From NCBI RefSeq assembly GCF_058153355.1, contig NZ_CM177019.1: 64,000 nt of DNA; one strand, written 5' to 3'. Position 1 is the first letter of the stretch; every line of letters begins with the position of its first letter. Shown piece after piece: positions 1-56,769 of this stretch. A program made the position numbers and the translations under genes. The notes under the pieces were generated by a model. It made no database searches. It worked only from the letters and a program-made list of their open reading frames with translations, and had not been told where the DNA came from.

Positions 1-140
1 GTGTCGAACTGAAGCTGAACGCGGAAGCTGTCGAGGCACTGAACGAGCTGGCAGAATCGCGCAATATGAGCCGTAGCGAACTGATCGAAGAGATGTTAAT
101 GCAGCAACTGGCGGCGCTGCGTAGTCAGGGCATCGTTTAA
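1..140 (+). CDS. ybfE: 3' end of ybfE (CopG-like DNA-binding protein), partial; 5' end lies outside the window
   Basis: Frame starting at position 3 reads ...[45 protein letters not shown], stop at 138-140; position upstream of fldA matches K-12 synteny. Confidence 0.6.
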
Positions 141-5790: not shown

Positions 5791-7737
5791 TTACTTTTTG
5801 ATTTCATACAGCGGCGTTTGACCCGCCACAACATGACCCTGAGCTTTAATGATAAGGCCGCTGAAATCGTCGATATTGCTGCAAACCACCGGGCTAATCA
5901 TCGAACGGGCGTTAGCGTTCAGGTAATCCAGATCCATTTCCAGAATCGGTTGCCCTGCGCTTACTTGCGCCCCCTCTTCCACCAGACGTTTAAAGCCTTT
6001 GCCTTCCAGCGCTACGGTGTCGATACCCATATGGACGACAATCTCAGCGCCTTTTTCGGTTTCCAGGCAGAACGCGTGATTGGTGTTGAAGATTTTCACG
6101 ATTGTCCCTGCGGCTGGCGATACGACGATTTTATCCGTCGGTTTCACCGCCACACCGTCACCCACCGCTTTGCTGGCAAATGCTTCGTCAGGAACCTGAT
6201 CCAGCGCCACAACATCACCGGTAATCGGCGATACCAGCTCCGCGACAGACACCGCGTTTGGTACAGCCTGCGGTTTTGCTACAGGCGCGGCAGTTACAGG
6301 CGCAGTTTCAGCTGACGCAGCGGCTACCGGACCACGGGCAACAACTTTCTTCATTGCATCGCCAATGGATTCCGCTTTCGCGCCAACAATCACCTGAATA
6401 GTCTGTTTGTTCAGTTTCACTACCCCAGAAGCACCCAGACGTTTACACATCGTATCGTTAACGCGGGCAGAGTCAGCCACGGTCAGACGCAGACGGGTGA
6501 TACAGGCGTCAATCGCTTTCAGGTTGTCAGTACCGCCAACCGCAGCAATATAGTTGGTCGCCAGTTGAGTCAGGCCTTCCTCGGTATTGCTGTTGGCTTC
6601 TTCAGTAACGATCTCGTCTTCTTTATCTTCGCGACCCGGCGTTTTCAGATTGAACATGCGGATAACCACACTGAACACCACGAAGTAGATAGCGAAGAAC
6701 ACAACCCCCATCACCAGCAGCATCCAGACGTTCTGGCTGGCGGCCGGCAGGTTATACATCAACGCGTAGTCGATAGCCCCCGCAGAGAAGGAGAAGCCAG
6801 CATGGATACCCAGCAGCGTTGCCACAAACAGGCTGATACCCGTCAGCAGTGCGTGCAGGAGGTACAGCAGCGGTGCAAGGAACATGAACAGGAATTCCAG
6901 CGGCTCAGTCACACCGGTCAGGAACGCAGTAACAGCAACAGAAAGCAGCATACCGCCAACCATCGGACGACGCTCTTTCGGTGCTGCGAAGTACATCGCC
7001 AGCGCCGCGCCCGGCAGACCGAACATCATAATCGGGAAGAAGCCGGACATGAACATCCCCGCGGTGCCGTCACCGGCATAGAAGCGGTTAATGTCGCCGT
7101 GGAAAACCGTACCCGCCGCGTTGGTGAATTCACCAATCTGGAACCAGGCGATGGTGTTCAGCACCTGATGCAGACCGGTTGGGATCAGCAGACGGTTGAT
7201 GAAACCAAAGATACCGGAACCCAGCGCGCCCGCAGAAACGATCCATTCGCCGCCTGCATGGATAGCGTGCTGTACCGGTGGCCAGACGTAACCAAAAATG
7301 GCCGCCAGCACCAGGCAGAAGAAGCCGGTGGCGATCGGCACAAAACGTTTGCCGCCGAAGAAGCTCAGGAAGTCCGGCAGTTTAATATCGGACCAACGGT
7401 TATAGGCAGCACCACCGACCAGACCGGTAATGATACCCGCCAGTACACCCATGTTAATTTCTGGGTTGATGGTCACCATCGCTTTGGTTAACACAAAGTA
7501 ACCGACCGCACCCGCCAGCGCCGCCGCACCTGCGCTGTCTTTCGACCAGCTGGATGCCACACCGATGGCGAAGATTAATGCGAGGTTATCAAAAATCGCA
7601 CCGCCCGCCTGGGCAATAAACGCAACGTTAAGTAAATCTGGCTGACCGAATCGCAGCAACAGTGCCGCCACCGGCAGCACCGCGATAGGGAGCTGTAACG
7701 CCCTACCGAGTCGCTGGAAAAAACCTAAAATATTCAT
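5791..7737 (-). CDS. nagE: PTS N-acetylglucosamine-specific EIICBA component (648 aa)
   Basis: N-terminal polytopic EIIC domain, central EIIB (...NLKAIDACITRLRLTV...) and C-terminal EIIA domain; divergent from nagB. Confidence 0.95.
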   Translation of the reverse strand: MNILGFFQRLGRALQLPIAVLPVAALLLRFGQPDLLNVAFIAQAGGAIFDNLALIFAIGVASSWSKDSAGAAALAGAVGYFVLTKAMVTINPEINMGVLAGIITGLVGGAAYNRWSDIKLPDFLSFFGGKRFVPIATGFFCLVLAAIFGYVWPPVQHAIHAGGEWIVSAGALGSGIFGFINRLLIPTGLHQVLNTIAWFQIGEFTNAAGTVFHGDINRFYAGDGTAGMFMSGFFPIMMFGLPGAALAMYFAAPKERRPMVGGMLLSVAVTAFLTGVTEPLEFLFMFLAPLLYLLHALLTGISLFVATLLGIHAGFSFSAGAIDYALMYNLPAASQNVWMLLVMGVVFFAIYFVVFSVVIRMFNLKTPGREDKEDEIVTEEANSNTEEGLTQLATNYIAAVGGTDNLKAIDACITRLRLTVADSARVNDTMCKRLGASGVVKLNKQTIQVIVGAKAESIGDAMKKVVARGPVAAASAETAPVTAAPVAKPQAVPNAVSVAELVSPITGDVVALDQVPDEAFASKAVGDGVAVKPTDKIVVSPAAGTIVKIFNTNHAFCLETEKGAEIVVHMGIDTVALEGKGFKRLVEEGAQVSAGQPILEMDLDYLNANARSMISPVVCSNIDDFSGLIIKAQGHVVAGQTPLYEIKK

Positions 7738-15827: not shown

Positions 15828-15904
15828 GGCTACGTAGCTCAGTTGGTTAGAGCACATCACTCATAATGATGGGGTCACAGGTTCGAATCCCGTCGTAGCC
15901 ACCA
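15828..15904 (+). tRNA. metT: tRNA-Met (elongator, anticodon CAU)
   Basis: GGCTACGTAGCTCAGTTGGTTAGAGCACATCACTCATAATGATGGGG...GTAGCCACCA; CAT in anticodon loop, CCA end. Confidence 0.95.
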
Positions 15905-15912
15905 TCTTTTTT

Positions 15913-15997
15913 GCGGGAGTGGCGAAATTGGTAGACGCACCAGATTTAGGTTCTGGCGCCGCAAGGTGTGCGAGTTCAAGTCTCGCCTCCCGCACCA
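15913..15997 (+). tRNA. leuW: tRNA-Leu (anticodon UAG)
   Basis: GCGGGAGTGGCGAAATTGGTAGACGCACCAGATTTAGGTTCTGG...CCCGCACCA; long variable arm. Confidence 0.95.
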
Positions 15998-16020
15998 TTC
16001 ACCAGAAAGCGTTGTACGGA

Positions 16021-16095
16021 TGGGGTATCGCCAAGCGGTAAGGCACCGGTTTTTGATACCGGCATTCCCTGGTTCGAATCCAGGTACCCCAGCCA
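16021..16095 (+). tRNA. glnU: tRNA-Gln (anticodon UUG)
   Basis: TGGGGTATCGCCAAGCGGTAAGGCACCGGTTTTTGATACCGG...CCCCAGCCA. Confidence 0.95.
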
Positions 16096-16129
16096 TCTTC
16101 TTCGAATAAGCGGTTCACCGCCCGGTTAT

Positions 16130-16204
16130 TGGGGTATCGCCAAGCGGTAAGGCACCGGTTTTTGATACCGGCATTCCCTGGTTCGAATCCAGGTACCCCA
16201 GCCA
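16130..16204 (+). tRNA. glnW: tRNA-Gln (anticodon UUG), second copy
   Basis: Identical to the preceding tRNA-Gln(UUG). Confidence 0.95.
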
Positions 16205-16219
16205 TCGAAGAAACAATCT

Positions 16220-16296
16220 GGCTACGTAGCTCAGTTGGTTAGAGCACATCACTCATAATGATGGGGTCACAGGTTCGAATCCCGTCGTAGCCACCA
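16220..16296 (+). tRNA. metU: tRNA-Met (elongator, anticodon CAU), second copy
   Basis: Identical to the copy at 15828-15904. Confidence 0.95.
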
Positions 16297-16344
16297 AATT
16301 CTGAATGTGTCGAATGCGTTCGGCAAATTCACAAACCAATTTGT

Positions 16345-16419
16345 TGGGGTATCGCCAAGCGGTAAGGCACCGGATTCTGATTCCGGCATTCCGAGGTTCG
16401 AATCCTCGTACCCCAGCCA
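16345..16419 (+). tRNA. glnV: tRNA-Gln (anticodon CUG)
   Basis: TGGGGTATCGCCAAGCGGTAAGGCACCGGATTCTGATTCCGG...; anticodon is wild-type CUG, not the CUA of supE. Confidence 0.95.
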
Positions 16420-16456
16420 ATTTATTCAAGACGCTTATATTGTAAGTGCACCCAGT

Positions 16457-16531
16457 TGGGGTATCGCCAAGCGGTAAGGCACCGGATTCTGATTCCGGCA
16501 TTCCGAGGTTCGAATCCTCGTACCCCAGCCA
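16457..16531 (+). tRNA. glnX: tRNA-Gln (anticodon CUG), second copy
   Basis: Identical to the copy at 16345-16419. Confidence 0.95.
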
Positions 16532-18005: not shown

Positions 18006-19430
18006 ATGACCAAAAAACTCCATATTAAAACCTGGGGCTGTCAGATGAATGAGTACGATTCATCGAAGATGGCCGATCTGCTGGATGCCACCCACGGCTA
18101 TCAACTGACCGACGTGGCGGAAGAAGCGGATGTGCTGCTGCTGAACACCTGCTCAATCCGCGAGAAGGCTCAGGAAAAAGTCTTCCATCAGTTGGGTCGC
18201 TGGAAACTGTTAAAAGAGAAGAATCCAGACCTGATTATCGGCGTCGGCGGCTGCGTGGCATCGCAAGAAGGCGAGCACATTCGCCAGCGCGCCCACTATG
18301 TTGATATTATTTTTGGGCCGCAAACGCTGCACCGTCTGCCGGAGATGATCAACTCCGTGCGCGGCGATCGCAGCCCGGTTGTAGATATCAGCTTCCCGGA
18401 AATCGAGAAGTTTGACCGTCTGCCGGAACCGCGTGCCGAAGGACCAACCGCGTTTGTCTCCATCATGGAAGGCTGCAATAAATATTGCACCTACTGTGTG
18501 GTGCCTTACACCCGTGGTGAAGAGGTAAGCCGTCCTTCCGACGATATTCTGTTTGAGATTGCCCAGCTTGCGGCTCAGGGCGTGCGTGAAGTCAACCTGC
18601 TCGGTCAGAACGTGAACGCCTGGCGTGGTGAGAACTACGACGGCACCACCGGATCGTTTGCCGATCTGCTGCGTCTGGTTGCGGCGATCGACGGGATCGA
18701 TCGTATTCGCTTTACCACCAGCCATCCGATCGAATTCACCGACGATATAATCGAGGTGTACCGCGACACGCCGGAGCTGGTGAGCTTCCTGCATCTGCCG
18801 GTTCAGAGCGGTTCCGATCGCATTCTAAACCTGATGGGACGTACCCACACGGCGCTGGAGTACAAAGCGATCATCCGTAAATTGCGTGCGGCGCGTCCTG
18901 ATATTCAGATCAGTTCTGACTTCATTGTCGGCTTCCCGGGCGAAACCACCGAAGACTTCGAAAAAACGATGAAGCTGATTGCCGACGTCAATTTCGACAT
19001 GAGCTACAGCTTTATCTTCTCCGCTCGTCCAGGAACGCCTGCCGCCGATATGGTTGATGATGTTCCGGAAGAAGAGAAGAAGCAGCGTCTGTATATTCTG
19101 CAAGAGCGCATTAATCAGCAAGCGATGGCATGGAGCCGCCGTATGCTCGGCACCACCCAGCGTATTCTGGTAGAAGGTACATCGCGTAAGAGCATCATGG
19201 AGCTTTCCGGTCGTACTGAAAATAACCGCGTGGTCAACTTCGAAGGTACGCCGGATATGATCGGTAAATTCGTCGATGTAGAAATTACCGACGTCTACCC
19301 GAACTCTCTGCGCGGTAAAGTGGTGCGTACTGAAGATGAAATGGGTCTGCGCGTGGCAGAAACACCGGAATCGGTGATTGCCCGTACCCGCAAAGAAAAT
19401 GACCTGGGCGTGGGTTATTATCAGCCGTAA
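18006..19430 (+). CDS. miaB: tRNA-i6A37 methylthiotransferase MiaB (474 aa)
   Basis: Radical-SAM CxxxCxxC ([11 protein letters not shown]) and N-terminal MTTase cysteines; correct length. Confidence 0.97.
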
Positions 19431-19434
19431 TTCT

Positions 19435-19467
19435 CAGGCCCGCCGTTCCGGTGGGCCTTGTTTTTTC
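19435..19467 (+). terminator. Candidate terminator/attenuator after miaB
   Basis: AGGCCCGCCGTTCCGGTGGGCCT hairpin followed by TGTTTTTTCT. Confidence 0.5.
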
Positions 19468-19582
19468 TCTCTTTATCCCCATCTTTATCGCAATGCTTGC
19501 GCCTTTTTCCTGTGGCGTGAATAATTTCCTTATAGGCCGGTGAATGTTCAGCTTCCGGCGGCATACAGATAAGAGGAACGGT

Positions 19583-20623
19583 TTGAACATAGACACTCGC
19601 GAAATCACTCTGGAGCCAGCAAACAACGCACGTCTGTTGAGCCTGTGCGGCCCGTTTGATGACAACATCAAACAACTCGAACGCCGTCTCGGCATCGAAA
19701 TCAATCGCCGCGATAACCACTTTAAACTGACCGGCCGTCCGATTTGCGTCACCGCTGCGGCAGACATTCTGCGTAGCCTGTATGTCGATACTGCCCCGAT
19801 GCGCGGTCAGATTCAGGATATCGAGCCGGAACAGATCCACCTGGCGATTAAAGAAGCGCGCGTGCTGGAACAAAGTGCGGAGAGCGTGCCGGAGTATGGC
19901 AAAGCGGTCAATATCAAGACCAAACGAGGTGTAATTAAACCGCGCACGCCAAACCAGGCGCAGTACATCGCCAATATTCTCGACCATGATATTACCTTCG
20001 GCGTTGGCCCGGCGGGTACGGGTAAAACCTACCTGGCAGTGGCTGCGGCAGTTGATGCCCTGGAGCGTCAGGAAATTCGCCGTATTCTGCTGACTCGTCC
20101 GGCGGTAGAAGCCGGTGAGAAACTGGGCTTCCTGCCTGGCGATTTAAGCCAGAAAGTGGACCCGTATCTGCGCCCGCTGTATGACGCGCTGTTTGAAATG
20201 TTGGGCTTTGAGAAAGTCGAGAAGCTGATTGAGCGCAACGTTATTGAAGTCGCGCCACTGGCCTATATGCGTGGTCGTACGCTGAACGACGCGTTTATCA
20301 TTCTTGATGAGAGCCAGAACACCACCATCGAACAGATGAAGATGTTCCTGACTCGTATCGGTTTTAACTCAAAAGCGGTTATTACCGGCGATGTCACGCA
20401 GATCGACTTACCGCGTAATACTAAATCAGGTTTACGTCACGCTATCGAAGTGTTAGCCGATGTCGAAGAGATCAGCTTTAACTTCTTCCACAGCGAAGAC
20501 GTGGTTCGTCACCCGGTGGTAGCGCGTATCGTTAACGCTTATGAAGCCTGGGAAGAAGCCGAACAAAAACGAAAAGCGGCGCTGGCAGCAGAACGCAAGC
20601 GCGAAGAACAGGAACAAAAATGA
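19583..20623 (+). CDS. ybeZ: PhoH-like ATPase YbeZ (346 aa)
   Basis: Walker A GPAGTGKT; TTG start at 19583 after AAGAGGAACGG gives the 346-aa form; ORF track extends to 19544. Confidence 0.9.
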
Positions 20624-21087
20624 GTCAGGTGATCCTCGATTTACAACTGGCATGTGAAGATAATTCCGGGTTACCGGAAGAGAGCCAGTTTCAGACATGG
20701 CTGAATGCGGTGATCCCGCAGTTTCAGGAAGAATCGGAAGTGACGATTCGCGTGGTCGATACCGCCGAAAGCCACAGTCTCAATCTGACCTATCGCGGTA
20801 AGGATAAGCCGACCAACGTGCTCTCCTTCCCGTTTGAAGTACCGCCTGGCATGGAGATGTCGCTGCTGGGCGATCTGGTTATCTGCCGTCAGGTCGTTGA
20901 GAAGGAAGCACAAGAGCAAGGCAAACCACTGGAAGCGCACTGGGCGCATATGGTGGTGCACGGCAGTCTGCATTTGTTAGGTTACGATCACATCGAAGAC
21001 GACGAAGCAGAAGAAATGGAAGCCCTCGAAACAGAGATTATGCTTGCTCTGGGCTATGAGGATCCGTACATTGCCGAGAAAGAATAA
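20620..21087 (+). CDS. ybeY: Endoribonuclease YbeY (155 aa)
   Basis: [14 protein letters not shown]...; [11 protein letters not shown] zinc motif; 4-bp overlap with ybeZ stop. Confidence 0.95.
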
Positions 21088-21176
21088 TTTGCCAGGCATT
21101 TGACTGGCAGACATCCCCGCCGTTGGTGATTAACGACGGCGTTTTGATTAACCAACATGAGAACCCATACGACGCC

Positions 21177-22055
21177 ATGAGCGACGACAATTCACACAGT
21201 AGTGACACGATAAGCAACAAGAAGGGATTTTTCTCCCTGTTACTCAGCCAACTTTTCCACGGTGAACCGAAAAACCGTGACGAACTGCTGGCGCTGATCC
21301 GTGATTCCGGGCAGAACGACCTTATCGACGAAGATACGCGCGATATGCTCGAAGGGGTGATGGACATCGCAGACCAACGCGTTCGCGACATCATGATCCC
21401 CCGCTCCCAGATGATTACCCTGAAACGCAACCAGACGCTGGACGAATGCCTTGATGTCATCATCGAGTCCGCCCACTCACGTTTCCCGGTGATTAGCGAA
21501 GACAAAGATCACATTGAAGGGATTCTGATGGCGAAAGACTTGCTGCCGTTTATGCGCAGCGATGCAGAAGCCTTCAGCATGGACAAAGTGTTACGTCAGG
21601 CGGTTGTCGTTCCTGAAAGTAAGCGCGTAGACCGGATGCTGAAAGAGTTTCGCTCTCAGCGTTACCACATGGCGATCGTCATTGACGAATTCGGTGGGGT
21701 TTCCGGTCTGGTGACCATTGAAGATATCCTGGAACTGATTGTTGGTGAGATTGAAGACGAGTATGACGAAGAAGATGATATCGACTTCCGTCAGCTGAGT
21801 CGTCATACCTGGACCGTGCGCGCACTGGCTTCCATCGAAGATTTCAACGAAGCCTTCGGCACCCACTTTAGCGATGAAGAAGTCGACACCATCGGAGGTC
21901 TGGTGATGCAGGCATTTGGGCATCTCCCGGCGCGTGGCGAAACCATCGACATCGACGGTTACCAGTTCAAAGTGGCGATGGCCGACAGTCGGCGTATTAT
22001 TCAGGTTCATGTCAAAATCCCGGATGACTCACCCCAGCCAAAGCTGGATGAATAA
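21177..22055 (+). CDS. corC: CorC/YbeX, CBS-domain Mg/Co efflux-associated protein (292 aa)
   Basis: [23 protein letters not shown]... from internal ATG at 21177; CBS pair plus CorC_HlyC C-terminal domain. Confidence 0.93.
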
Positions 22056-22079
22056 AACCGAAACTGGATAGATAACTAC

Positions 22080-23618
22080 ATGGCTTTTGCCTCATTAATT
22101 GAACGCCAGCGCATTCGCCTGCTGCTGGCGTTATTATTCGGTGCCTGCGGAACGCTGGCCTTCTCTCCTTACGATGTCTGGCCTGCGGCGATTATTTCGC
22201 TGATGGGACTTCAGGCGCTCACCTTTAACCGCCGTCCACTCCAGTCTGCCTCTATTGGCTTTTGCTGGGGATTTGGCCTGTTTGGCAGCGGTATTAACTG
22301 GGTCTATGTCAGCATCGCGACCTTTGGCGGAATGCCTGGCCCGGTTAACATCTTCCTGGTGGTGCTGCTGGCGGCGTATTTGTCGCTGTATACCGGACTG
22401 TTTGCTGGCGTGCTGTCGCGTCTGTGGCCGAAAACCACCTGGCTGCGCGTGGCGATTGCCGCCCCTGCTCTCTGGCAAGTGACCGAGTTTCTGCGCGGTT
22501 GGGTGCTGACTGGCTTCCCGTGGTTGCAGTTCGGCTATAGCCAGATTGACGGTCCGTTAAAAGGACTGGCACCGATAATGGGCGTGGAAGCCATTAACTT
22601 CCTGCTGATGATGGTAAGCGGCCTGCTGGCACTGGCGTTGGTCAAACGCAACTGGCGTCCGCTGGTGGTGGCCGTCGTGCTGTTTGCCCTTCCCTTCCCG
22701 CTACGTTACATCCAGTGGTTTACCCCGCAACCGGAGAAAACCATTCAGGTTTCGATGGTTCAGGGCGACATTCCGCAATCGCTGAAGTGGGATGAAGGCC
22801 AGCTTCTCAATACGCTGAAGATTTACTACAACGCAACGGCACCGCTGATGGGCAAGTCATCGCTGATTATCTGGCCTGAATCGGCGATAACCGACCTGGA
22901 AATTAATCAGCAGCCGTTCCTCAAAGCACTGGACGGTGAGTTGCGTGATAAAGGTAGCTCGCTGGTCACCGGGATTGTCGACGCGCGTCTCAATAAGCAG
23001 AATCGCTACGATACCTACAACACCATCATCACGCTGGGTAAAGGTGCACCGTATAGCTACGAATCAGCCGATCGCTATAACAAAAACCATCTGGTACCGT
23101 TTGGCGAGTTTGTCCCGCTGGAGTCGATTCTGCGTCCGTTAGCACCGTTCTTTGATCTGCCGATGTCGTCATTCAGCCGTGGACCATATATCCAACCACC
23201 GCTGTCGGTAAATGGTATTGAGCTTACTGCGGCTATTTGCTACGAGATCATTCTCGGCGAGCAAGTGCGCGATAACTTCCGCCCGGATACCGACTATCTG
23301 CTGACTATCTCCAACGATGCGTGGTTTGGTAAGTCTATTGGCCCATGGCAGCACTTTCAGATGGCGCGAATGCGTGCGCTGGAGCTGGCGCGCCCGCTGC
23401 TGCGTAGCACCAACAACGGCATTACGGCGGTGATTGGCCCGCAGGGTGAGATTCAGGCGATGATCCCGCAATTCACCCGCGAGGTGTTGACCACTAATGT
23501 GACGCCGACTACCGGACTCACACCGTACGCACGTACCGGCAACTGGCCGCTGTGGGTACTGACGGCACTGTTTGGTTTTGCCGCTGTGTTGATGAGACTG
23601 CGAGCACGTCAACGTTAA
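22080..23618 (+). CDS. lnt: Apolipoprotein N-acyltransferase Lnt (512 aa)
   Basis: Polytopic N-terminal region plus nitrilase-like domain; correct length. Confidence 0.96.
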
Positions 23619-23722
23619 TGTGAATGATGCACTGGCCAGCAAAATCGCATCATTTTTGCAGGCCAGATAAACTGTTCACACCACATCCGGTATCAACAAA
23701 ACGTACTTTCTCATTGAGCTGT

Positions 23723-23750
23723 GGGGCGTGATTATCATGCCCCTTTTTTT
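23723..23750. terminator. Bidirectional terminator at the convergent 3' ends of lnt and the rhomboid gene
   Basis: GGGGCGTGATTATCATGCCCC hairpin followed by TTTTTTT; overlaps the rhomboid gene stop codon. Confidence 0.6.
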
Positions 23751-25626
23751 ACGGTTCAGGGATACAAGCCACATCGCCATATTGGGGATGCCGAATAATT
23801 GCCTGCGGATCAAGCGAGCGCGTCCTGTCCATTTGGATTAACCCGTTCTTCGCCATAACAAATATCTTTCTACCATCCGCTGAAAAACGAAGATGATTAA
23901 CGTAGCTGGCAGGATAAACGCCAATAATCTGCCCGGCATTAATATTGAGCAGGATGACATAACCTTGCAGGCCATATGACACCAACGCTAAATACTGACC
24001 GTCCGGGCTAATACCCTCAACAGAATAAACGCTCCTGCTACACCATTGCGTCATAATGCTGGCTTGTTGATCCCCTGTGCTTATACGTGAAATCCCCTGA
24101 CTATCGGCAAAAATAACCTCACCATTTTTTGGTCGGAATCCCATCGCAGAAACGACACCACGCGCATCACCTGCGGGAAAGTCTTCTTTCTGATGCGTGA
24201 TGGTATTGATCCGCACGATGTTACCTCTGCCTGCTCCTGGAACCAGTAATGTTTTTTCATCCGGGGAAAGTGCCATAACCCAGGCGCCTGGTTTACCGCT
24301 CGTCCCCGTCCCGTCGTATTTCTCCAGTGCGATATCCGCCACATGCTGATAAGTCACCAGATCAATCGCTGACACACTATTACTGGTGCGATTCATCACC
24401 CAGGCTTTTGTGCCATCACGCGAGAGGATAAGGCTGTCAGGATGGGCGCCGGTGGTAATCGACTGAATAATCTCCCCCGTCGCCACGTTAACGACCGATA
24501 ATGCATTCGCTTCAAATGAAGTCGCATACAGCAACTTTTCATCGGGGCTTAACACCAGCGATCTGACGCCCTGATCTTTACAGCCACCACAATGTTTGAC
24601 TGACTTTTCTTTCGCTATGGGCGCTGTAAAGGTATGCAGGATTTTCTTTTGTCCGAGGTCGAAAACAACAATACTGTTCGTGTTTTCAATTGCGGCATAT
24701 AACGTATTACCATCCCGATTGATCGCCATATCATGGATATCGGCAATCTCAGCGAGCAAATCACCACTGGCCTGTTCACGACTTACCGGAGCGGATAATG
24801 TTTCCCTGAGGGCATTGCGTTCCTCCGCTAACTGCTGCTTTTTATGCCGTCGCTCTTGTTCAATCTCCTGCGGATAAAACTCTTCACGCAGGCTTTGCCT
24901 GACCTGCAAAACTGATTCATCAATCTGCTGCTGCACAAGCCAGATAGCCCCGGTCAGTAGAAGACTACCCGCAACAATAATCCCACCTTCCGTAACGAGC
25001 CGGTTTTGCCCAGATAAACGCGCACTCAGCCAACCCAACGCTCCACCTGCCATCAGGCCGCCAATGTGGCAAGCGTTATCTATTCCTGCTTGCCGGGCAC
25101 CATACAACAGTGTCAGCGCCACCATACCCAACAGAGAAAATACTCGCCGCTGGTTTTTATGGTGTGTACCCGCACCTGAAGAAAGCTGTGTTGCTATCGC
25201 AGCGCCAGCTATTCCCATAATTGCCCCGGATGCCCCAACGCTGATGACTATCTGCTCACTTTCGCGTAACGCATAACAGGCGCTGATGAGCCCACCAAAG
25301 ATGCCGGAGAATAACCAGATAATCAGGAGTCGCCATTTCCCCAGTATCCGTTCCGCCACTGTCCCCACCACCAGGAGTGCAAACATATTCATCAGCAAAT
25401 GGGAAAAACTACTGTGCAGAAAAACACTGCTCAATAAGCGCCAGGGTTCACCCGACAACGTGAGAGAGGCAACGTTAGCGCCGAGATGGATGAGTGCGGA
25501 TTGATCGACTTCTTCATAACTCATCCATTGTGCGAGGTAACAAAATATCCCAACACATAGCGCAAAAAGGATCAGGGTTATTGCGGGTAATTGAACATTT
25601 AACGGCTTAACCGAAGATGCAGACAT
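23749..25626 (-). CDS. Rhomboid-family intramembrane serine protease fused to a C-terminal YVTN-type beta-propeller domain (about 625 aa)
   Basis: ATG at 25626 after AAGGAAG gives MSASSVKPLNV...; rhomboid motifs WRLLSSVFLHSSFSHLLMNM, GASGAIMG (Ser) and ACHIGGLMAG (His); 7th TM helix, coiled-coil linker, then repeated ...LYAAIENTNSIVVFDL / LYATSFEANALSVVNVATG / AWVMNRTSNSVSAIDL blades. Confidence 0.8.
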   Translation of the reverse strand: MSASSVKPLNVQLPAITLILFALCVGIFCYLAQWMSYEEVDQSALIHLGANVASLTLSGEPWRLLSSVFLHSSFSHLLMNMFALLVVGTVAERILGKWRLLIIWLFSGIFGGLISACYALRESEQIVISVGASGAIMGIAGAAIATQLSSGAGTHHKNQRRVFSLLGMVALTLLYGARQAGIDNACHIGGLMAGGALGWLSARLSGQNRLVTEGGIIVAGSLLLTGAIWLVQQQIDESVLQVRQSLREEFYPQEIEQERRHKKQQLAEERNALRETLSAPVSREQASGDLLAEIADIHDMAINRDGNTLYAAIENTNSIVVFDLGQKKILHTFTAPIAKEKSVKHCGGCKDQGVRSLVLSPDEKLLYATSFEANALSVVNVATGEIIQSITTGAHPDSLILSRDGTKAWVMNRTSNSVSAIDLVTYQHVADIALEKYDGTGTSGKPGAWVMALSPDEKTLLVPGAGRGNIVRINTITHQKEDFPAGDARGVVSAMGFRPKNGEVIFADSQGISRISTGDQQASIMTQWCSRSVYSVEGISPDGQYLALVSYGLQGYVILLNINAGQIIGVYPASYVNHLRFSADGRKIFVMAKNGLIQMDRTRSLDPQAIIRHPQYGDVACIPEP

Positions 25627-26081
25627 AAGGTGATTCTTCCTTGAAAAGACAGGTAAAAAAGCATTTTTCCCGTGTGCAGTTATCATCCCGGCAAACGTCC
25701 CATACCGAAAAGTTAACTCTGTCCGAAATATGACTTTTTCAGCCTGAAATTACAATCGTAATTAATTCACCCCTAAGTATTTTTTGGCATGTAAGTTGCT
25801 TTATTTACTGTGTAAGCAATGAAATCAGCCGCAACGCAACCGGGTTGCACCAACACAAATCAGCGGTAGCACCAAAAAGGTGCGGTTTAAGAGTTTTGCT
25901 TCGGAATGGTGCGGCGCATCTCGCAAAAACAAACAATAAAACATCAATATCTTTACATTTAACCAAACTAAATGTTACCTAACAAACACAACACTGCACA
26001 ATAAAGTTGCAGATGATAACAACACAAACACTCACAACGGGTATCCATGCGTTCTTAACGCAGAAGATAAAGGAGTTGGAT

Positions 26082-26990
26082 ATGCAATTACGTAAACCTG
26101 CCACAGCAATCCTGGCCCTGGCGCTTTCCGCAGGACTGGCACAGGCAGATGACGCCGCCCCGGCAGCAGGCAGTACGCTGGACAAAATCGCCAAAAACGG
26201 TGTGATTGTCGTCGGTCACCGTGAATCTTCAGTACCTTTCTCTTATTACGACAATCAGCAAAAAGTGGTGGGTTACTCGCAGGATTACTCCAACGCCATT
26301 GTTGAAGCAGTGAAAAAGAAACTCAACAAACCGGACTTGCAGGTGAAATTGATTCCGATCACCTCACAAAACCGTATTCCGCTGCTGCAAAACGGCACTT
26401 TCGATTTTGAATGTGGTTCTACCACCAACAACGTCGAACGCCAGAAACAGGCGGCTTTCTCCGACACTATTTTCGTGGTCGGTACGCGCCTGCTGACAAA
26501 AAAAGGCGGCGATATTAAAGATTTTGCCGATCTGAAAGACAAAGCCGTCGTAGTCACTTCCGGCACCACCTCTGAAGTTTTGCTCAACAAACTGAATGAA
26601 GAGCAAAAAATGAACATGCGCATCATCAGCGCCAAAGATCACGGTGACTCTTTCCGCACCCTGGAAAGCGGTCGTGCCGTTGCCTTTATGATGGATGACG
26701 CTCTGTTAGCCGGTGAGCGAGCGAAAGCGAAGAAACCAGACAACTGGGAAATCGTCGGCAAGCCGCAGTCTCAGGAAGCCTACGGTTGCATGTTGCGTAA
26801 AGACGATCCGCAGTTCAAAAAGCTGATGGATGACACTATCGCTCAGGTGCAGACCTCCGGTGAAGCGGAAAAATGGTTTGATAAGTGGTTCAAAAATCCA
26901 ATTCCGCCGAAAAACCTGAACATGAATTTCGAACTGTCGGACGAAATGAAAGCACTGTTCAAAGAACCGAATGACAAGGCACTGAACTAA
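26082..26990 (+). CDS. gltI: Glutamate/aspartate periplasmic binding protein GltI (302 aa)
   Basis: ATG at 26082 after AAGGAG gives MQLRKPATAILALALSAGLAQA signal peptide; correct length. Confidence 0.95.
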   Translation: MQLRKPATAILALALSAGLAQADDAAPAAGSTLDKIAKNGVIVVGHRESSVPFSYYDNQQKVVGYSQDYSNAIVEAVKKKLNKPDLQVKLIPITSQNRIPLLQNGTFDFECGSTTNNVERQKQAAFSDTIFVVGTRLLTKKGGDIKDFADLKDKAVVVTSGTTSEVLLNKLNEEQKMNMRIISAKDHGDSFRTLESGRAVAFMMDDALLAGERAKAKKPDNWEIVGKPQSQEAYGCMLRKDDPQFKKLMDDTIAQVQTSGEAEKWFDKWFKNPIPPKNLNMNFELSDEMKALFKEPNDKALN

Positions 26991-27146
26991 TTACAAGAAC
27001 CAGGGGCGGAAATTCCAGCCCTCTCGATTGTTACGTAGCACGGACAGACTATACGCCTGATGGTCGTTCCCCATCGGGCCTGAAAACCGCAATACGCTGG
27101 GTAACAATCTTCGAGGGTAGCAGTTAACGCTGCTACCCTTTTTTTT
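26991..27146 (+). ncRNA. sroC: SroC sRNA region (processed from the gltI-gltJ intergenic part of the gltIJKL mRNA)
   Basis: Location only: intergenic segment ending at the intrinsic terminator; SroC is known to derive from this position; sequence identity not verified from memory. Confidence 0.45.
27115..27146 (+). terminator. Intra-operon rho-independent terminator between gltI and gltJ
   Basis: GGGTAGCAGTTAACGCTGCTACCC hairpin followed by TTTTTTTT. Confidence 0.7.
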
Positions 27147-27159
27147 CTGGAGTAGATTT

Positions 27160-27900
27160 ATGTCTATAGACTGGAACTGGGGTATTTTTTTACAACAAGC
27201 CCCGTTCGGCAACACCACCTATCTTGGTTGGATCTGGAGTGGTTTTCAGGTGACGATTGCTTTGTCGATCTGCGCCTGGATTATCGCTTTCCTCGTCGGT
27301 TCATTTTTCGGCATTTTACGTACCGTTCCAAACCGTTTTCTCTCCGGTCTGGGTACGTTGTATGTCGAACTGTTCCGCAACGTGCCGTTGATTGTGCAAT
27401 TCTTTACCTGGTATCTGGTTATCCCTGAACTGTTGCCGGAAAAAATCGGCATATGGTTTAAGGCAGAACTAGACCCAAATATTCAGTTTTTCCTCTCCTC
27501 CATGCTCTGTCTGGGACTGTTTACTGCAGCTCGTGTTTGCGAACAAGTACGCGCCGCGATTCAGTCGCTGCCGCGTGGGCAAAAAAATGCCGCGCTGGCG
27601 ATGGGTCTGACGCTTCCGCAGGCTTACCGCTACGTACTGTTGCCTAACGCTTATCGCGTTATCGTCCCGCCAATGACCTCTGAGATGATGAACCTGGTAA
27701 AAAACTCCGCCATCGCCTCGACCATCGGTCTGGTAGATATGGCGGCGCAGGCCGGTAAATTGCTCGATTACTCAGCCCACGCCTGGGAGTCATTTACCGC
27801 CATTACGTTGGCGTATGTGTTGATTAACGCTTTTATCATGCTGGTGATGACGCTGGTTGAACGTAAAGTTCGCCTGCCCGGCAACATGGGGGGCAAATAA
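27160..27900 (+). CDS. gltJ: Glutamate/aspartate ABC transporter permease GltJ (246 aa)
   Basis: Polar amino-acid ABC permease with EAA-type loop; gene order gltIJKL. Confidence 0.95.
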
Positions 27901-28573
27901 TGTACGAGTTTGACTGGAGTTCCATTGTTCCTTCCCTGCCATATCTGCTCGACGGGCTGGTGATCACCCTGAAAATCACCATCACGGCGGTGGTCATTGG
28001 TATTTTGTGGGGTACGTTGCTGGCAGTAATGCGCTTGTCCAGCTTTGCGCCGATTGCCTGGTTTGCCAAAGCCTACGTTAACGTGTTCCGTTCGATCCCG
28101 TTAGTCATGGTTTTGCTATGGTTTTACCTGATTGTGCCGGGTTTTCTGCAAAACGTGCTGGGATTATCGCCAAAAAATGATATCCGTTTAATTTCGGCGA
28201 TGGTGGCGTTTTCGATGTTTGAAGCGGCCTACTATTCAGAGATTATCCGTGCCGGTATTCAAAGTATTTCCCGTGGTCAGTCGAGCGCCGCGCTGGCGTT
28301 GGGGATGACTCACTGGCAGTCGATGAAACTGATTATTCTGCCGCAGGCGTTCCGCGCGATGGTGCCGCTGCTGCTCACTCAGGGCATCGTACTGTTCCAG
28401 GATACCTCGCTGGTGTATGTGTTATCTCTGGCCGATTTCTTCCGTACCGCCTCAACCATTGGTGAGCGTGATGGTACGCAGGTTGAGATGATCCTGTTTG
28501 CCGGATTTGTTTATTTCGTTATTAGCCTTAGCGCATCGTTGTTGGTCAGCTACTTGAAAAGAAGGACAGCTTA

Positions 28574-28574
<1 letters not shown>
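27900..28574 (+). CDS. gltK: Glutamate/aspartate ABC transporter permease GltK (224 aa)
   Basis: Second permease; start overlaps gltJ stop (TAATG). Confidence 0.95.
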
Positions 28575-29299
<725 letters not shown>

Positions 29300-29416
29300 T
29301 CACTCTGGCGCGCATACCCAAGTGCGCGCCATCTCACGCTTTATCGTTTCGCTCCTCGTATCTGTTACATCCTGGCGGTACCCTTGTCGCAAAGAAGCAC
29401 ACAACAAGGAGCAACA

Positions 29417-30352
29417 ATGGCACTGCCAATTCTGTTAGATTGCGACCCAGGTCATGACGACGCTATCGCAATAGTTCTTGCCCTCGCCTCACCAGAGCTT
29501 GATGTCAAAGCAATTACGTCTTCCGCCGGAAACCAGACTCCAGAAAAAACCTTACGCAATGTTCTGCGTATGCTGACCTTGCTCAATCGCACCGATATTC
29601 CGGTAGCAGGCGGCGCGGTAAAACCGTTAATGCGTGAGTTGATTATCGCGGACAATGTGCACGGCGAAAGCGGTCTCGACGGCCCGGCATTACCGGAACC
29701 AACGTTCGCACCGCAAAACTGCACGGCGGTGGAGTTGATGGCGAAAACGCTGCGTGAAAGTGCGGAACCTGTCACGATTGTTTCTACCGGGCCGCAAACT
29801 AACGTTGCCTTGCTGCTCAATAGCCATCCGGAACTGCATAGCAAAATGGCCCGTATCGTGATTATGGGCGGCGCAATGGGGCTTGGTAACTGGACGCCAG
29901 CGGCAGAATTTAATATTTACGTTGACCCAGAAGCGGCAGAAATTGTCTTCCAGTCAGGGATACCGGTGGTGATGGCCGGTCTGGATGTTACTCACAAAGC
30001 GCAAATTCACGTTGAGGACACCGAGCGTTTCCGCACCATTGGTAACCCGGTTTCTACCATTGTTGCCGAACTGCTGGATTTCTTCCTCGAATATCACAAA
30101 GACGAAAAATGGGGCTTTGTGGGCGCACCGCTGCATGACCCATGCACCATCGCCTGGCTGTTGAAACCCGAGTTGTTTACCACTGTTGAGCGCTGGGTTG
30201 GCGTGGAAACACAGGGGAAATATACTCAGGGCATGACGGTTGTTGATTATTATTATCTGACGGGCAATAAACCGAATGCCACTGTAATGGTCGACGTTGA
30301 TCGTCAGGGCTTTGTTGATTTACTGGCTGAGCGTCTGAAATTTTACGCTTAA
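29417..30352 (+). CDS. rihA: Pyrimidine-specific ribonucleoside hydrolase RihA (311 aa)
   Basis: [19 protein letters not shown]... (DxDxxxDD nucleoside-hydrolase motif) from ATG at 29417. Confidence 0.94.
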
Positions 30353-30435
30353 CACACGTCATTGATTAAGATCACCACGCGTTACCTGGGTGGTCTTAAT
30401 CTGTTTATCTCTTTTTCCTTTAAGATATAAATGCA

Positions 30436-32106
30436 ATGGATAATGCAGAACTCGCCATTGGTATCTATCTCGGTACTACCAATAGTTTAATTGCCGTCTG
30501 GAAAGACGGTGCCGCGCAATTAATTCCAAATAAGTTCGGTGAATATTTAACACCATCCATAATTAGCATGGATGAAAATAATCATATTTTAGTCGGAAAA
30601 CCGGCTGTATCACGGCGCACTTCGCATCCGGATAAAACCGCCGCATTATTTAAACGCTCAATGGGCAGTAATACCAACTGGCGGTTAGGCAGCGACACAT
30701 TTAACGCACCAGAACTGTCCTCTTTGGTCTTACGTTCATTAAAAGAAGATGCCGAAGAATTTCTGCAACGTTCTATTAAAAATGTGGTGATCTCCGTTCC
30801 GGCTTATTTCAGCGATGAACAACGCAAGCATACCCGTTTAGCAGCGGAGTTAGCCGGGTTAAATGCGGTACGCTTAATTAATGAACCCACAGCAGCTGCA
30901 ATGGCGTATGGCCTGCATACCCAACAAAATACCCGTTCGCTGGTGTTTGATCTCGGTGGCGGCACGTTTGACGTTACGGTGCTTGAGTACGCCACGCCGG
31001 TGATTGAAGTTCACGCCTCCGCTGGCGACAACTTTCTTGGCGGCGAAGATTTTACTCATATGCTGGTGGATGAAGTTTTAAAACGCGCCGCAGTGGCTAA
31101 AAACATGCTCAACGAAAGTGAGCTGGCAGCCCTGTACACCAGCGTGGAAGCGGCAAAATGCAGCAATCAATTACCGCTACAAATTAGCTGGCAGTATCAG
31201 GAAGAAACGCGTGAGTGCGAATTTTACGAGAACGAACTGGAAGATTTGTGGTTGCCGCTGCTCAATCGCTTGCGAGTGCCGATTGAACAGGCGTTGCGCG
31301 ATGCGCGTCTGAAACCGAGTCAAATCGACAGTCTGGTGCTGGTTGGCGGCGCGTCACAAATGCCGCTAGTGCAACGAATCGCCGTGCGTCTGTTTGGCAA
31401 ATTGCCATATCAAAGTTACGACCCGAGCACCATTGTCGCGCTGGGCGCAGCGATCCAGGCCGCCTGCCGCTTACGCAGCGAAGACATTGAAGAAGTGATC
31501 CTCACCGATATTTGCCCCTACTCCTTAGGTGTTGAAGTTAACCGCCAGGGCGTTTCCGGCATTTTCTCACCGATTATTGAACGAAACACCACTGTACCGG
31601 TGTCGCGTGTAGAAACTTACTCGACCATGCACCCGGAACAGGATTCAATTACGGTTAACGTCTATCAGGGAGAAAACCACAAAGTTAAAAATAACATTCT
31701 GGTGGAATCCTTCGATGTGCCGTTGAAGAAAACCGGGGCTTATCAGTCGATTGATATTCGCTTTAGTTATGATATCAACGGGTTGCTTGAAGTTGACGTG
31801 CTTCTGGAAGACGGCAGCGTTAAGTCCAGAGTCATTAATCACAGTCCTGTAACATTGAGCGCACAGCAGATTGAAGAGAGTCGGACGCGGTTATCCGCAT
31901 TGAAAATTTATCCACGCGATATGCTCATCAACCGCACCTTTAAGGCCAAACTGGAAGAGTTGTGGGCGCGGGCGCTGGGTGACGAGCGAGAAGAGATCGG
32001 CCGGGTGATCACCGATTTTGATGCGGCGTTGCAGCCAAACGATATGGCCCGCGTCGATGAAGTTCGGCGACGGGCGAGCGATTATTTGGCTATTGAGATC
32101 CCTTAA
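30436..32106 (+). CDS. hscC: Hsp70-family chaperone HscC/Hsc62 (556 aa)
   Basis: Hsp70 signatures IGIYLGTTNS, DLGGGTFD, LVGGASQMP; correct length. Confidence 0.95.
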   Translation: MDNAELAIGIYLGTTNSLIAVWKDGAAQLIPNKFGEYLTPSIISMDENNHILVGKPAVSRRTSHPDKTAALFKRSMGSNTNWRLGSDTFNAPELSSLVLRSLKEDAEEFLQRSIKNVVISVPAYFSDEQRKHTRLAAELAGLNAVRLINEPTAAAMAYGLHTQQNTRSLVFDLGGGTFDVTVLEYATPVIEVHASAGDNFLGGEDFTHMLVDEVLKRAAVAKNMLNESELAALYTSVEAAKCSNQLPLQISWQYQEETRECEFYENELEDLWLPLLNRLRVPIEQALRDARLKPSQIDSLVLVGGASQMPLVQRIAVRLFGKLPYQSYDPSTIVALGAAIQAACRLRSEDIEEVILTDICPYSLGVEVNRQGVSGIFSPIIERNTTVPVSRVETYSTMHPEQDSITVNVYQGENHKVKNNILVESFDVPLKKTGAYQSIDIRFSYDINGLLEVDVLLEDGSVKSRVINHSPVTLSAQQIEESRTRLSALKIYPRDMLINRTFKAKLEELWARALGDEREEIGRVITDFDAALQPNDMARVDEVRRRASDYLAIEIP

Positions 32107-32114
32107 ACACGGCT

Positions 32115-32212
32115 GCCGGATGCGGCATAAACGCCTTATCCTGCCTACTCGTAGGTCGGATAAGATGCGTTAGCATCGCATCCGACGTTGAAGGATAAGA
32201 TGCGTTAGCCTC
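32115..32212. repeat. Cluster of REP elements (BIME) between hscC and djlC
   Basis: GCCGGATGCGGCATAAACGCCTTATCCTGCCTAC and GTAGGTCGGATAAGATGCGTTAGCATCGCATCCGAC. Confidence 0.55.
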
Positions 32213-32216
32213 ACAT

Positions 32217-33669
32217 CTAACTGAACAACATCGCGATTTTACCGAGCGCGTAACCTATCACCAGAACCGTTAAGCTGATTTTGATAATACTGGCAATGCT
32301 CTGTGGTTTTTCACTCTCATTATTCTTCTCTTCGTGTTCTTCAGGTGCTGGCTCGTCGATATCTTCTTCCACCGGCTCGAGCTTCACTTTCGTCAACAGC
32401 ATGTGAGTAATAATGGCTTCTAACGGATGTGCTTCTCCTCGTTCCAGTCGCGCATTCAGGCGGGCCAGCATCTCTTGTTTCGGGAACGCTTCCAGCACAA
32501 CCTGTTCCGCTACCCGATACAAATCCAGTAACGGTGAATCTTGTTCTGTCTCGCTACCGACTCTCGATTTCCACCATGCCCATGCTTTGCGCTTGAAGAA
32601 TAACGACTCAATAAACGATTGACCTAACGGCGATAATTTTCCGCTATGTAAAATTTCCGCCCATAACAGCCGCGTCCGGGCGCTCTCACCAGGAACATAT
32701 TTCAACGGTTGACCTTGAGCATCTATCATGCTTCGCGCTTCGATAACCATCACTAATAACGCGAAATAATCCGGGCAATGACGCTTGCTCCACTGCAACA
32801 ACAAATTATCAGCTTGTGTAGATGGGTAACTCTCCCGGTATGCGCAGAGATCGGCAAGCAGGCTTTCCCCCTCGCCACAGTACAACCGTTGCGCACACTG
32901 GTAATAACGGGCATCTTCGCTTTCTGGTTCTTCCGTTTGCCACTGTTGCGCTACAGAAATGAGTTCCGCCATACCTGTTTGCACCGAGCTATACCAGCGC
33001 AACAATTTGCGATGCAACTTCGCATCATCGGGAATGAACCACGGACCTTCCATCGCCAAAAACGCAGTGACATAGTCAGGGTGATAACGGCAGCAGCGTT
33101 CCAATGCGAAGTAATACTCAACAGTCTGGTTCTGCAACGCGACGGGATATTCCAGAAGGCTTAGAAAATCGAAACAATCCCCGGCCTGAATGGCCTCAAG
33201 AAAAGCCTCCCGTTCTTCCTCGTCCATGCCTTCACTTTCATTAAACGAATGCCAGTTCAAACGCTCTGCCAGCAAAGAAGCACAATTTAATGAAAGATAT
33301 CGCGCTTCTGTAGCGATTGCACACAGCGGCCAGCGTAATTGATCGACATCCTCCATGTTCCATGGTATTTAATTGCTGAATAAATTTCTGCCAGGCGGAG
33401 GGCTGAAAACGATCGCTTTCCGAAGCCAGTAAGGTTCTGAACGCTTTCAGTGCTTCGTGCTCTTCTGCAAGATTTTTCTCGTCATCAGCATTTTTTTCGT
33501 CCGGATTGACAGCCAGTCGCAGCGCCTCTTCATAGGCCTGGCGTAATGCTTTAAACCCCTGCGGATCGGTTTCGGGATGACACAACGGTAAGCGAGCAAG
33601 ATAAGCCTGGCGGATAATGTCTATTTGCGTCGTGCTTTCAATTTCGAGGATTTGCCAACATGTTTTCAT
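32217..33669 (-). pseudogene. djlC: djlC (J-domain co-chaperone of HscC), split by a frameshift into 142-aa and 379-aa overlapping ORFs
   Basis: ORF 33241..33669 ([15 protein letters not shown]...[10 protein letters not shown] then out of frame) and ORF 32217..33356 ([15 protein letters not shown]...) are collinear with intact paralog DjlB (...[24 protein letters not shown]...). Confidence 0.65.
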
Positions 33670-56337: not shown

Positions 56338-56367
56338 AAAAAAAACCCGCTGATTAAGCGGGTTTTG
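56338..56367. terminator. Bidirectional terminator between crcB and cspE
   Basis: AAAAAAACCCGCTGATTAAGCGGGTTTTGAATT. Confidence 0.7.
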
Positions 56368-56385
56368 AATTCTTGCTGACGTATC

Positions 56386-56595
56386 TTACAGAGCGATTAC
56401 GTTTGCAGCAGAAGGGCCTTTGGCACCGTTAGTGATTTCGAACTCTACGCGCTGACCTTCAGCAAGAGTTTTAAAACCATTAGTCTGGATTGCAGAGAAG
56501 TGTACGAACACGTCTTTGCTGCCGTCTTCCGGAGTAATGAAACCGAATCCTTTGGACTCATTAAACCACTTAACGTTACCTTTAATCTTAGACAT
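56386..56595 (-). CDS. cspE: Cold-shock-domain protein CspE (69 aa)
   Basis: [37 protein letters not shown]... (RNP1/RNP2 motifs). Confidence 0.95.
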
Positions 56596-56769
56596 CAAAA
56601 TTACCTTTACATGAAAAATAGACACAAATGCTGTGTCGGTTACCAGTACACCAATTGTGGTACGCTTTGTCCAGTGCAACTTTACTAAAAAGTGATAAAA
56701 GTCGCGTTATTTTTGATGTTAATTATTTTACTCATTGATTTTAAAGAAGTTACTAAAATTTCATTTGTC

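Follow-up and report, generated by a model that had tools for sequence, protein, structure and literature searches.

The 64,000-nt stretch of DNA analysed here (the window) carries the gltIJKL operon on its plus strand (Table 1). The TAA stop codon of gltI occupies 26988-26990 and the ATG of gltJ lies at 27160, leaving a spacer of 169 bp (26991-27159), which bears out an earlier description of the locus made from the letters alone (the sequence-only reading) as an intra-operon spacer of this length. For gltI, the NF008063 model scored 666.9 bits against a cut-off of 375 and covered residues 26-327 of the mechanically listed ORF, whose TTG start at 26007 was replaced by the true start at 26082. 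RefSeq annotation of near-identical DNA agrees with the assignments of gltI, gltJ, gltK and gltL. The last three are the permease and ATPase genes, and their stop/start overlaps indicate translational coupling; on this layout they should be reached only by read-through past the terminator that closes the spacer. A scan of 25600-29600 found no sigma-70-like promoter; it also missed the gltI promoter and is hence uninformative, so that it provides no evidence that SroC, the small RNA (sRNA) discussed below, is without a promoter of its own.

Over 14 kb, the closest complete E. coli genome shows 98.3% identity to the window. Named representatives of Escherichia species reach 92.0-95.2%, and identity to strain 2017-02-2CC is a mosaic of 98.9% (ybeZ-lnt) and 96.8% (glt-hscC). 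From these comparisons, the window probably derives from an Escherichia lineage that lies near the complete RefSeq E. coli genomes without being represented in them. It is syntenic with E. coli K-12 at ~650-714 kb in reversed orientation, with the approximate order ybfF/fur/chiP/glnS/nag, asnB, tRNA cluster, miaB, lnt, gltIJKL, hscC, leuS, mrdAB, cspE, towards dpiAB/cit; window 19000-33000 was compared, and the outer synteny was inferred, unaligned, from the annotation of the closest genome.

Several other features of the window were recorded. Between lnt and gltI, a minus-strand ORF of 645 aa (23749-25686) has a Rhomboid domain at its N-terminus (PF01694, 100.7 bits) and matches WD40/beta-propeller families weakly towards its C-terminus; it occurs in many E. 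coli genomes, where RefSeq labels it a rhomboid family intramembrane serine protease. At the same site K-12 carries IS5D, the end of which lies 103 bp before gltI, and strain 2017-02-2CC has neither the ORF nor IS5D. Seven tRNA genes at 15828-16528 (+) correspond to the Met-Leu-Gln-Gln-Met-Gln-Gln array annotated in related genomes. The cspA thermoregulator model RF01766 matches 56338-56751 (-) with 123.8 bits against a gathering score of 78, its 5' part aligning poorly; by synteny with strain E500002 this region is expected to hold cspE rather than cspA, and the match probably reflects similarity in cold-shock-protein coding and terminator sequence more than a thermosensor.

Table 1. Features of the gltI-gltJ region and of the SroC copy (window coordinates).
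Feature	Coordinates	Strand	Evidence
C/A-rich stretch TAACAACACAAACACTCACAACGG in the gltI 5' leader, inferred target of the G/U-rich GcvB R1	26017-26040	+	sequence, RNAduplex
gltI, periplasmic glutamate/aspartate-binding protein, 302 aa, SroC parental mRNA	26082-26990	+	NF008063
SroC sRNA, 163 nt; 5' end 5 nt within gltI, 3' end after the terminator U-tract	26986-27148	+	RF00369, K-12 b4763
SroC stem-loop 1	27003-27022	+	MFE and centroid fold; helix 1: 2 of 8 pairs changed on both sides, 81.9% of cells paired
SroC stem-loop 2, long bulged stem, bears both GcvB-binding sites	27026-27109	+	MFE fold
BS1 GGACAGAC, SroC nt 57-64, pairs with GcvB 156-163 GUCUGUCC	27042-27049	+	8 contiguous Watson-Crick pairs, K-12 GcvB
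BS2 UCGUUCC, SroC nt 79-85, pairs with GcvB 13-19 GGAACGA	27064-27070	+	7 contiguous Watson-Crick pairs, K-12 GcvB
Rho-independent terminator hairpin, 12-bp stem, UAAC loop	27113-27140	+	terminator scan, fold; -19.7 kcal/mol; helix 6 98.8% paired
U8 tract, terminator tail and presumed 3' Hfq-binding tail	27139-27146	+	sequence
Sole base unlike K-12 sroC: T here, C in K-12	27140	+	alignment
gltJ Shine-Dalgarno GGAG (27149-27152) and start codon (27160-27162), immediately 3' of the terminator	27149-27162	+	sequence, ORF list
gltJ	27160-27900	+	synteny and RefSeq annotation of near-identical DNA
gltK	27900-28574	+	NF011687, 478.4 bits against a cut-off of 318
gltL	28574-29299	+	synteny and RefSeq annotation of near-identical DNA

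Identity and constraint of the spacer RNA

SroC is a textbook mRNA-derived sponge through which the operon of one amino-acid transporter is connected with the entire GcvB regulon, and the sequence-only reading had assigned the spacer to it. A search of the whole window against Rfam 15, on which that reading had staked the assignment, revealed a match to the sroC family, RF00369, at 26986-27148 (+), scoring 173.9 bits where the gathering score is 45 (E = 1.2e-36) and spanning the full model (1-163/163); the match was seen again when 25600-27400 was rescanned with permissive filters. In K-12 MG1655, the ncRNA sroC (b4763) is annotated at 686681-686843, between gltI and gltJ and overlapping the last 5 nt of gltI. 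The second check proposed there, alignment with K-12 sroC, gave 162 identical bases out of 163 in the same gltI-gltJ position, and the 26 nt upstream of the SroC 5' end and the 27 nt downstream of the RNA are identical to K-12 too. The layout is also that of K-12: SroC lies between gltI and gltJ, all three on the plus strand, and starts in the 3' end of gltI. Both the family match and b4763 thus uphold the spacer as the SroC locus, with the amendment that the RNA is not wholly contained in it. The ends used here (26986 and 27148) are borrowed from the K-12 annotation and the Rfam model, so that the exact 5' end is an inherited one; Salmonella SroC numbering in PMC4474525 is +3 relative to ours.

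We compared the spacer with the genes around it. Identity to K-12 is 96.7% for gltI (one amino-acid difference), 94.9% for gltJ, 95.6% for gltK and 95.9% for gltL; across gltIJKL, 4.2% of all sites and 11.4% of third codon positions differ, with five amino acids changed in total. Within the spacer only one of the 169 bases differs, and the binomial probability of so few differences (one or none) is 0.006 if the overall coding rate is assumed and 3e-8 if the third-position rate is. The spacer is therefore far more constrained than the surrounding silent sites, as would be expected of a functional RNA.

Fold, covariation and terminator

The 163-nt SroC folds at -63.9 kcal/mol, as compared to -40.7 +/- 4.0 kcal/mol in 200 dinucleotide shuffles (z = -5.8), none of which was as stable, and the fold consists of stem-loop 1, a long bulged stem-loop 2 and the terminator hairpin. 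We projected the window's own fold, an origin that favours structure somewhat, onto an alignment of 45 sequences: 43 loci retrieved by an exact-pattern scan with one genome per species, plus the window and K-12, together covering Escherichia, Citrobacter, Kluyvera, Klebsiella, Raoultella and Enterobacter. The retrieval pattern demanded an exact BS2 and GAA.ACCG, and the set is without Salmonella, E. fergusonii, E. marmotae and the usual E. coli reference; the invariance of BS2 and GAA.ACCG within it is therefore uninformative, and the absence of a genus carries no meaning.

Across these 45 sequences, standard pairs occupy 93.1% of cells, as compared to 35.7-52.3% when partners are slid by 1-3 columns. 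Ten pairs have changes on both sides, and cells with both sides changed number 111 against 49.9 +/- 7.7 in shuffles, a count reached by 0 of 500; likewise, 0 of 500 shuffles match the observed covariation score or the percentage of cells paired. The covariation is located in stem-loop 1 and in the outer and apical stems of stem-loop 2, where helix 2 (13 pairs) has four pairs changed on both sides and 93.2% of cells paired, and helix 5 (9 pairs) has three and 99.2%. The SroC fold is thus supported by covariation across six genera. Two 3-bp MFE helices running through part of BS1 display no covariation, helix 3 being invariant and helix 4 paired in 79.1% of cells, in agreement with, though no proof of, the published probing that places BS1 in an accessible internal bulge (PMC4474525).

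The same alignment bears on the possibility that the conservation marks a small protein gene, either the 75-codon GTG ORF that the mechanical list places antisense to the spacer (minus strand, 26991-27218) or a short plus-strand ORF. In or before stem-loop 1 there are indels of 1, 2 and 4 nt, and together with a ~9-nt block in the terminator hairpin they would break any frame; the substitutions are paired and compensatory, without three-base periodicity. The minus-strand ORF moreover extends into gltJ on the opposite strand. Its 75-aa product was excluded as a gene by the frame-breaking indels and compensatory substitutions across genera, and we attach practically no probability to a coding explanation of any kind.

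Three Citrobacter loci in the set (C. braakii ATCC 51113, C. amalonaticus S646 and Citrobacter sp. Res13) carry an insertion of ~127 nt between the gltI stop codon and SroC stem-loop 1 (6462-6588 in locus L032; also in loci L013 and L034), which sets the processing site apart from the structured body of SroC; all three remain Rfam sroC matches, at 147-150 bits. The inserted element is a dispersed intergenic repeat that lies under no annotated feature and has a median copy number of 9 in E. coli genomes; it presumably resembles ERIC/IRU. In the E. albertii comparison locus L005, positions 42-84 (-) match the Rfam sRNA family ES036 (CssrF) with 45.5 bits against a gathering score of 37.6; this match is unrelated to SroC.

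At the 3' end of the RNA, GGGTAGCAGTTAACGCTGCTACCC at 27115-27138 is followed by T8 at 27139-27146, as the sequence-only reading had described. In a terminator scan of 25600-29600 this site ranks first (12 pairs, 6 of them G-C, with a 4-nt loop); the scan returned 10 sites as compared to 5.2 +/- 2.6 in shuffles, an unremarkable count in which the quality of the SroC site is remarkable. A hairpin with a U-tract of at least 6 is present in 45 of 45 aligned sequences, termination itself being predicted here. The terminator hairpin (window 27121-27132 region) is ~9 nt longer in Escherichia and Kluyvera than in Citrobacter, Klebsiella and Raoultella: the long form has a 12-bp stem at -19.7 kcal/mol, the short form a 9-bp stem at -13.1 kcal/mol. 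The Rfam sroC consensus has the short form, with no pairing marked in the hairpin, hence the poor cmscan alignment there.

The sequence-only reading had called the terminator strong; the literature terms it leaky: in Salmonella, a "leaky Rho-independent terminator" gives rise to a monocistronic gltI mRNA and SroC beside the full gltIJKL mRNA, and one promoter serves the whole operon (PMC4474525). With gltJKL downstream and a single operon promoter in Salmonella, the terminator must be leaky. The proposal that it sets expression of the binding protein above that of the permease matches this published account.

The base at position 27140

The single difference from K-12 sroC falls on the second base of the terminator U-tract. 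Where K-12 has a C, a G-C closing pair and the tract UCUUUUUU, the window has a U that turns the closing pair G27113-C into G.U and leaves U8 uninterrupted, with a hairpin energy of -19.7 as compared to -21.3 kcal/mol in K-12. Every one of the 5,421 complete E. coli genomes that gave a match over 27086-27175 agrees with the window at 89 of 90 positions, and T27140 is absent from 5,426 complete RefSeq E. coli genomes searched by megablast with a 53-nt query centred on the base, which by its length can seed only across it. Among 43 distinct rows of the alignment, the pair at this position is G.U in 39 and G-C in 4, U prevailing in Citrobacter, Kluyvera, Klebsiella and Raoultella. T27140 is thus the ancestral state or a reversion to it. 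The change is structure-preserving.

We consider it unlikely that U8 with a G.U closing pair makes a measurably more efficient terminator than the E. coli UCUUUUUU form, or that an undescribed cis element regulates read-through. The idea of such an element was raised by Miyakoshi et al. (PMC4474525), and it could be carried further: the conserved structure may act in cis as a sensor, either like a riboswitch or by binding a protein, and adjust termination to some signal, with GcvB sponging secondary. Runs that are invariant outside BS1 and BS2, such as ATCTTCG and GGGTAG, just before and within the 5' arm of the hairpin (for example ATCTTCGAGGG at 27106-27116), would suit a sensor; GAA.ACCG is invariant too, but as part of the retrieval pattern it says nothing on the matter. 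Nothing specific in support of a sensor was found, and no other Rfam family matched 25600-27400 at E <= 1 except a sub-threshold hit to the Listeria sbrA family at 27101-27145 (26.4 bits against a gathering score of 45), which was rejected, the likeness being confined to the terminator. We know of no ligand or factor that would act on termination in the SroC region, and regard a sensor with secondary sponging as very unlikely; an sRNA released at this terminator remains the preferred reading.

GcvB pairing and the regulatory loop

In Salmonella, two SroC sites of 7-8 nt, 14 nt from each other, pair with GcvB, as established with the compensatory mutants SroC C63G/C87G and GcvB G160C/G14C (PMC4474525). 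Both pairing sites are present in the window at the same 14-nt distance, in agreement with Miyakoshi et al. 2015 (PMC4474525) and with the role of GcvB sponge that had been proposed for the spacer RNA. Allowing for the +3 offset, the C60-G160 and C84-G14 pairs are those of the published mutants C63G/G160C and C87G/G14C, respectively. BS2 is exactly the 7-nt apical loop of stem-loop 2 in the MFE fold. BS1 with its flank, GGACAGACTATA, is invariant in 45 of 45 sequences retrieved by a pattern that did not contain BS1. Pairing was computed against K-12 GcvB and not the source genome's own gcvB, which lies outside the window; no Rfam match to GcvB was found within the 64,000 nt. A whole-molecule RNAduplex of SroC with GcvB gave an unrealistic full-length duplex and was dropped for site-wise tests.

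These sites also bear on a purely local role, in which the spacer would be a cis-acting attenuator only, its hairpin and U-tract setting the GltI:GltJKL ratio while nothing in the 125 nt upstream acts in trans. The terminator does lie directly before the gltJ ribosome-binding site, and a role in stoichiometry is accepted in the literature (PMC4474525). Yet ~35 nt suffice for a terminator, and the upstream 125 nt hardly vary within Escherichia (0 differences from K-12 as compared to 11.4% at third positions), form covarying helices and hold the two GcvB-complementary sites; in Salmonella, deletion and point mutants act on GcvB in trans, and point mutations in BS1 and BS2 alter the stability of GcvB while leaving termination as it was (PMC4474525). 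Attenuation and sponging are compatible rather than exclusive, the former belonging to the accepted model, and it is attenuation as the sole function that we find highly improbable.

For this sequence the match to the family is shown, as are its position, fold and terminator, the two pairing sites and the conservation; with nothing in it that contradicts the reading, the spacer element is almost certainly a SroC ortholog, a known sRNA in its known place.

The gltI leader carries a candidate GcvB R1 target. RNAduplex pairs K-12 GcvB 61-100 with window 26004-26041 at -38.2 kcal/mol, a value that stands without a shuffle baseline, and in Salmonella the C/A-rich site of the gltI leader is both a GcvB target and a translation enhancer (PMC4474525). 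With this site in gltI itself, the GcvB-gltI-SroC loop would be a feed-forward one.

By homology with experiments in Salmonella and E. coli K-12 (PMC4474525, PMC10250213, PMC9438474), we propose that transcription from the gltI promoter would either halt at the leaky terminator (27113-27146) or continue into gltJKL. RNase E, assisted by Hfq, would degrade terminated gltI transcripts starting at their 5' side, and their tightly folded last ~163 nt (26986-27148) would persist as a stable 5'-monophosphate RNA. In Salmonella, RNase E, helped by Hfq and sensing the 5' monophosphate, trims gltI mRNA to SroC, and this processing needs a 20-nt leader upstream of the 5' end (PMC4474525); the equivalent leader falls within the 26 upstream nt that are identical to K-12. 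SroC is Hfq-dependent (PMC4474525) and very stable whatever its 5' phosphorylation state (PMC10250213). The released RNA would then pair with GcvB through two sites in stem-loop 2, BS1 (internal loop) and BS2 (apical loop), leading to cleavage of GcvB by RNase E with SroC itself spared; in the published system, pairing reduces the GcvB half-life from >15 min to 1.7 min via RNase E in an Hfq-dependent manner, and SroC is not consumed (PMC4474525). Loss of GcvB may in turn derepress many amino-acid transport and metabolism mRNAs, gltI included. According to a review (PMC9438474), MgrR too is lowered by SroC, and fliE and flhBAE are repressed by it.

Compared with SroC of K-12 (b4763) and Salmonella Typhimurium (RF00369), the window copy has the same position across the gltI 3' end and spacer, the same strand and 163-nt length, and the same stem-loops, BS1, BS2 and terminator hairpin. 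Like CpxQ, SdhX, NarS and OppZ, which are type II processed 3'-UTR Hfq sRNAs, SroC ends at the terminator of its parental mRNA, owes its release to RNase E, bears a 5' monophosphate and acts in the pathway of the parental operon (PMC4474525, PMC9438474, PMC10250213). Unlike these RNAs, it arises from an operon-internal terminator and not from the operon end, and its main target is another sRNA (with MgrR a further one) rather than an mRNA, without co-degradation with the target. The chbBC spacer, which acts on ChiX, similarly derives from an mRNA and, by base-pairing, brings down the level of an Hfq-dependent sRNA; there, a change in the terminator region exposes ChiX to PNPase, whereas GcvB is cut by RNase E through a 5'-end-independent route (PMC4474525).

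Taken together, this SroC copy is an already known RNA, an ordinary ortholog one base off that of E. coli K-12, and beyond correct annotation it matters little. Flagging it is nonetheless useful, as the non-K-12 genomes examined lack sroC in their automatic NCBI annotation. All that is specific to this lineage is a single terminator base, the effect of which, if any, would be quantitative: were the T27140 terminator indeed stronger, it would yield more monocistronic gltI mRNA and SroC, less gltJKL and lower GcvB in this lineage.
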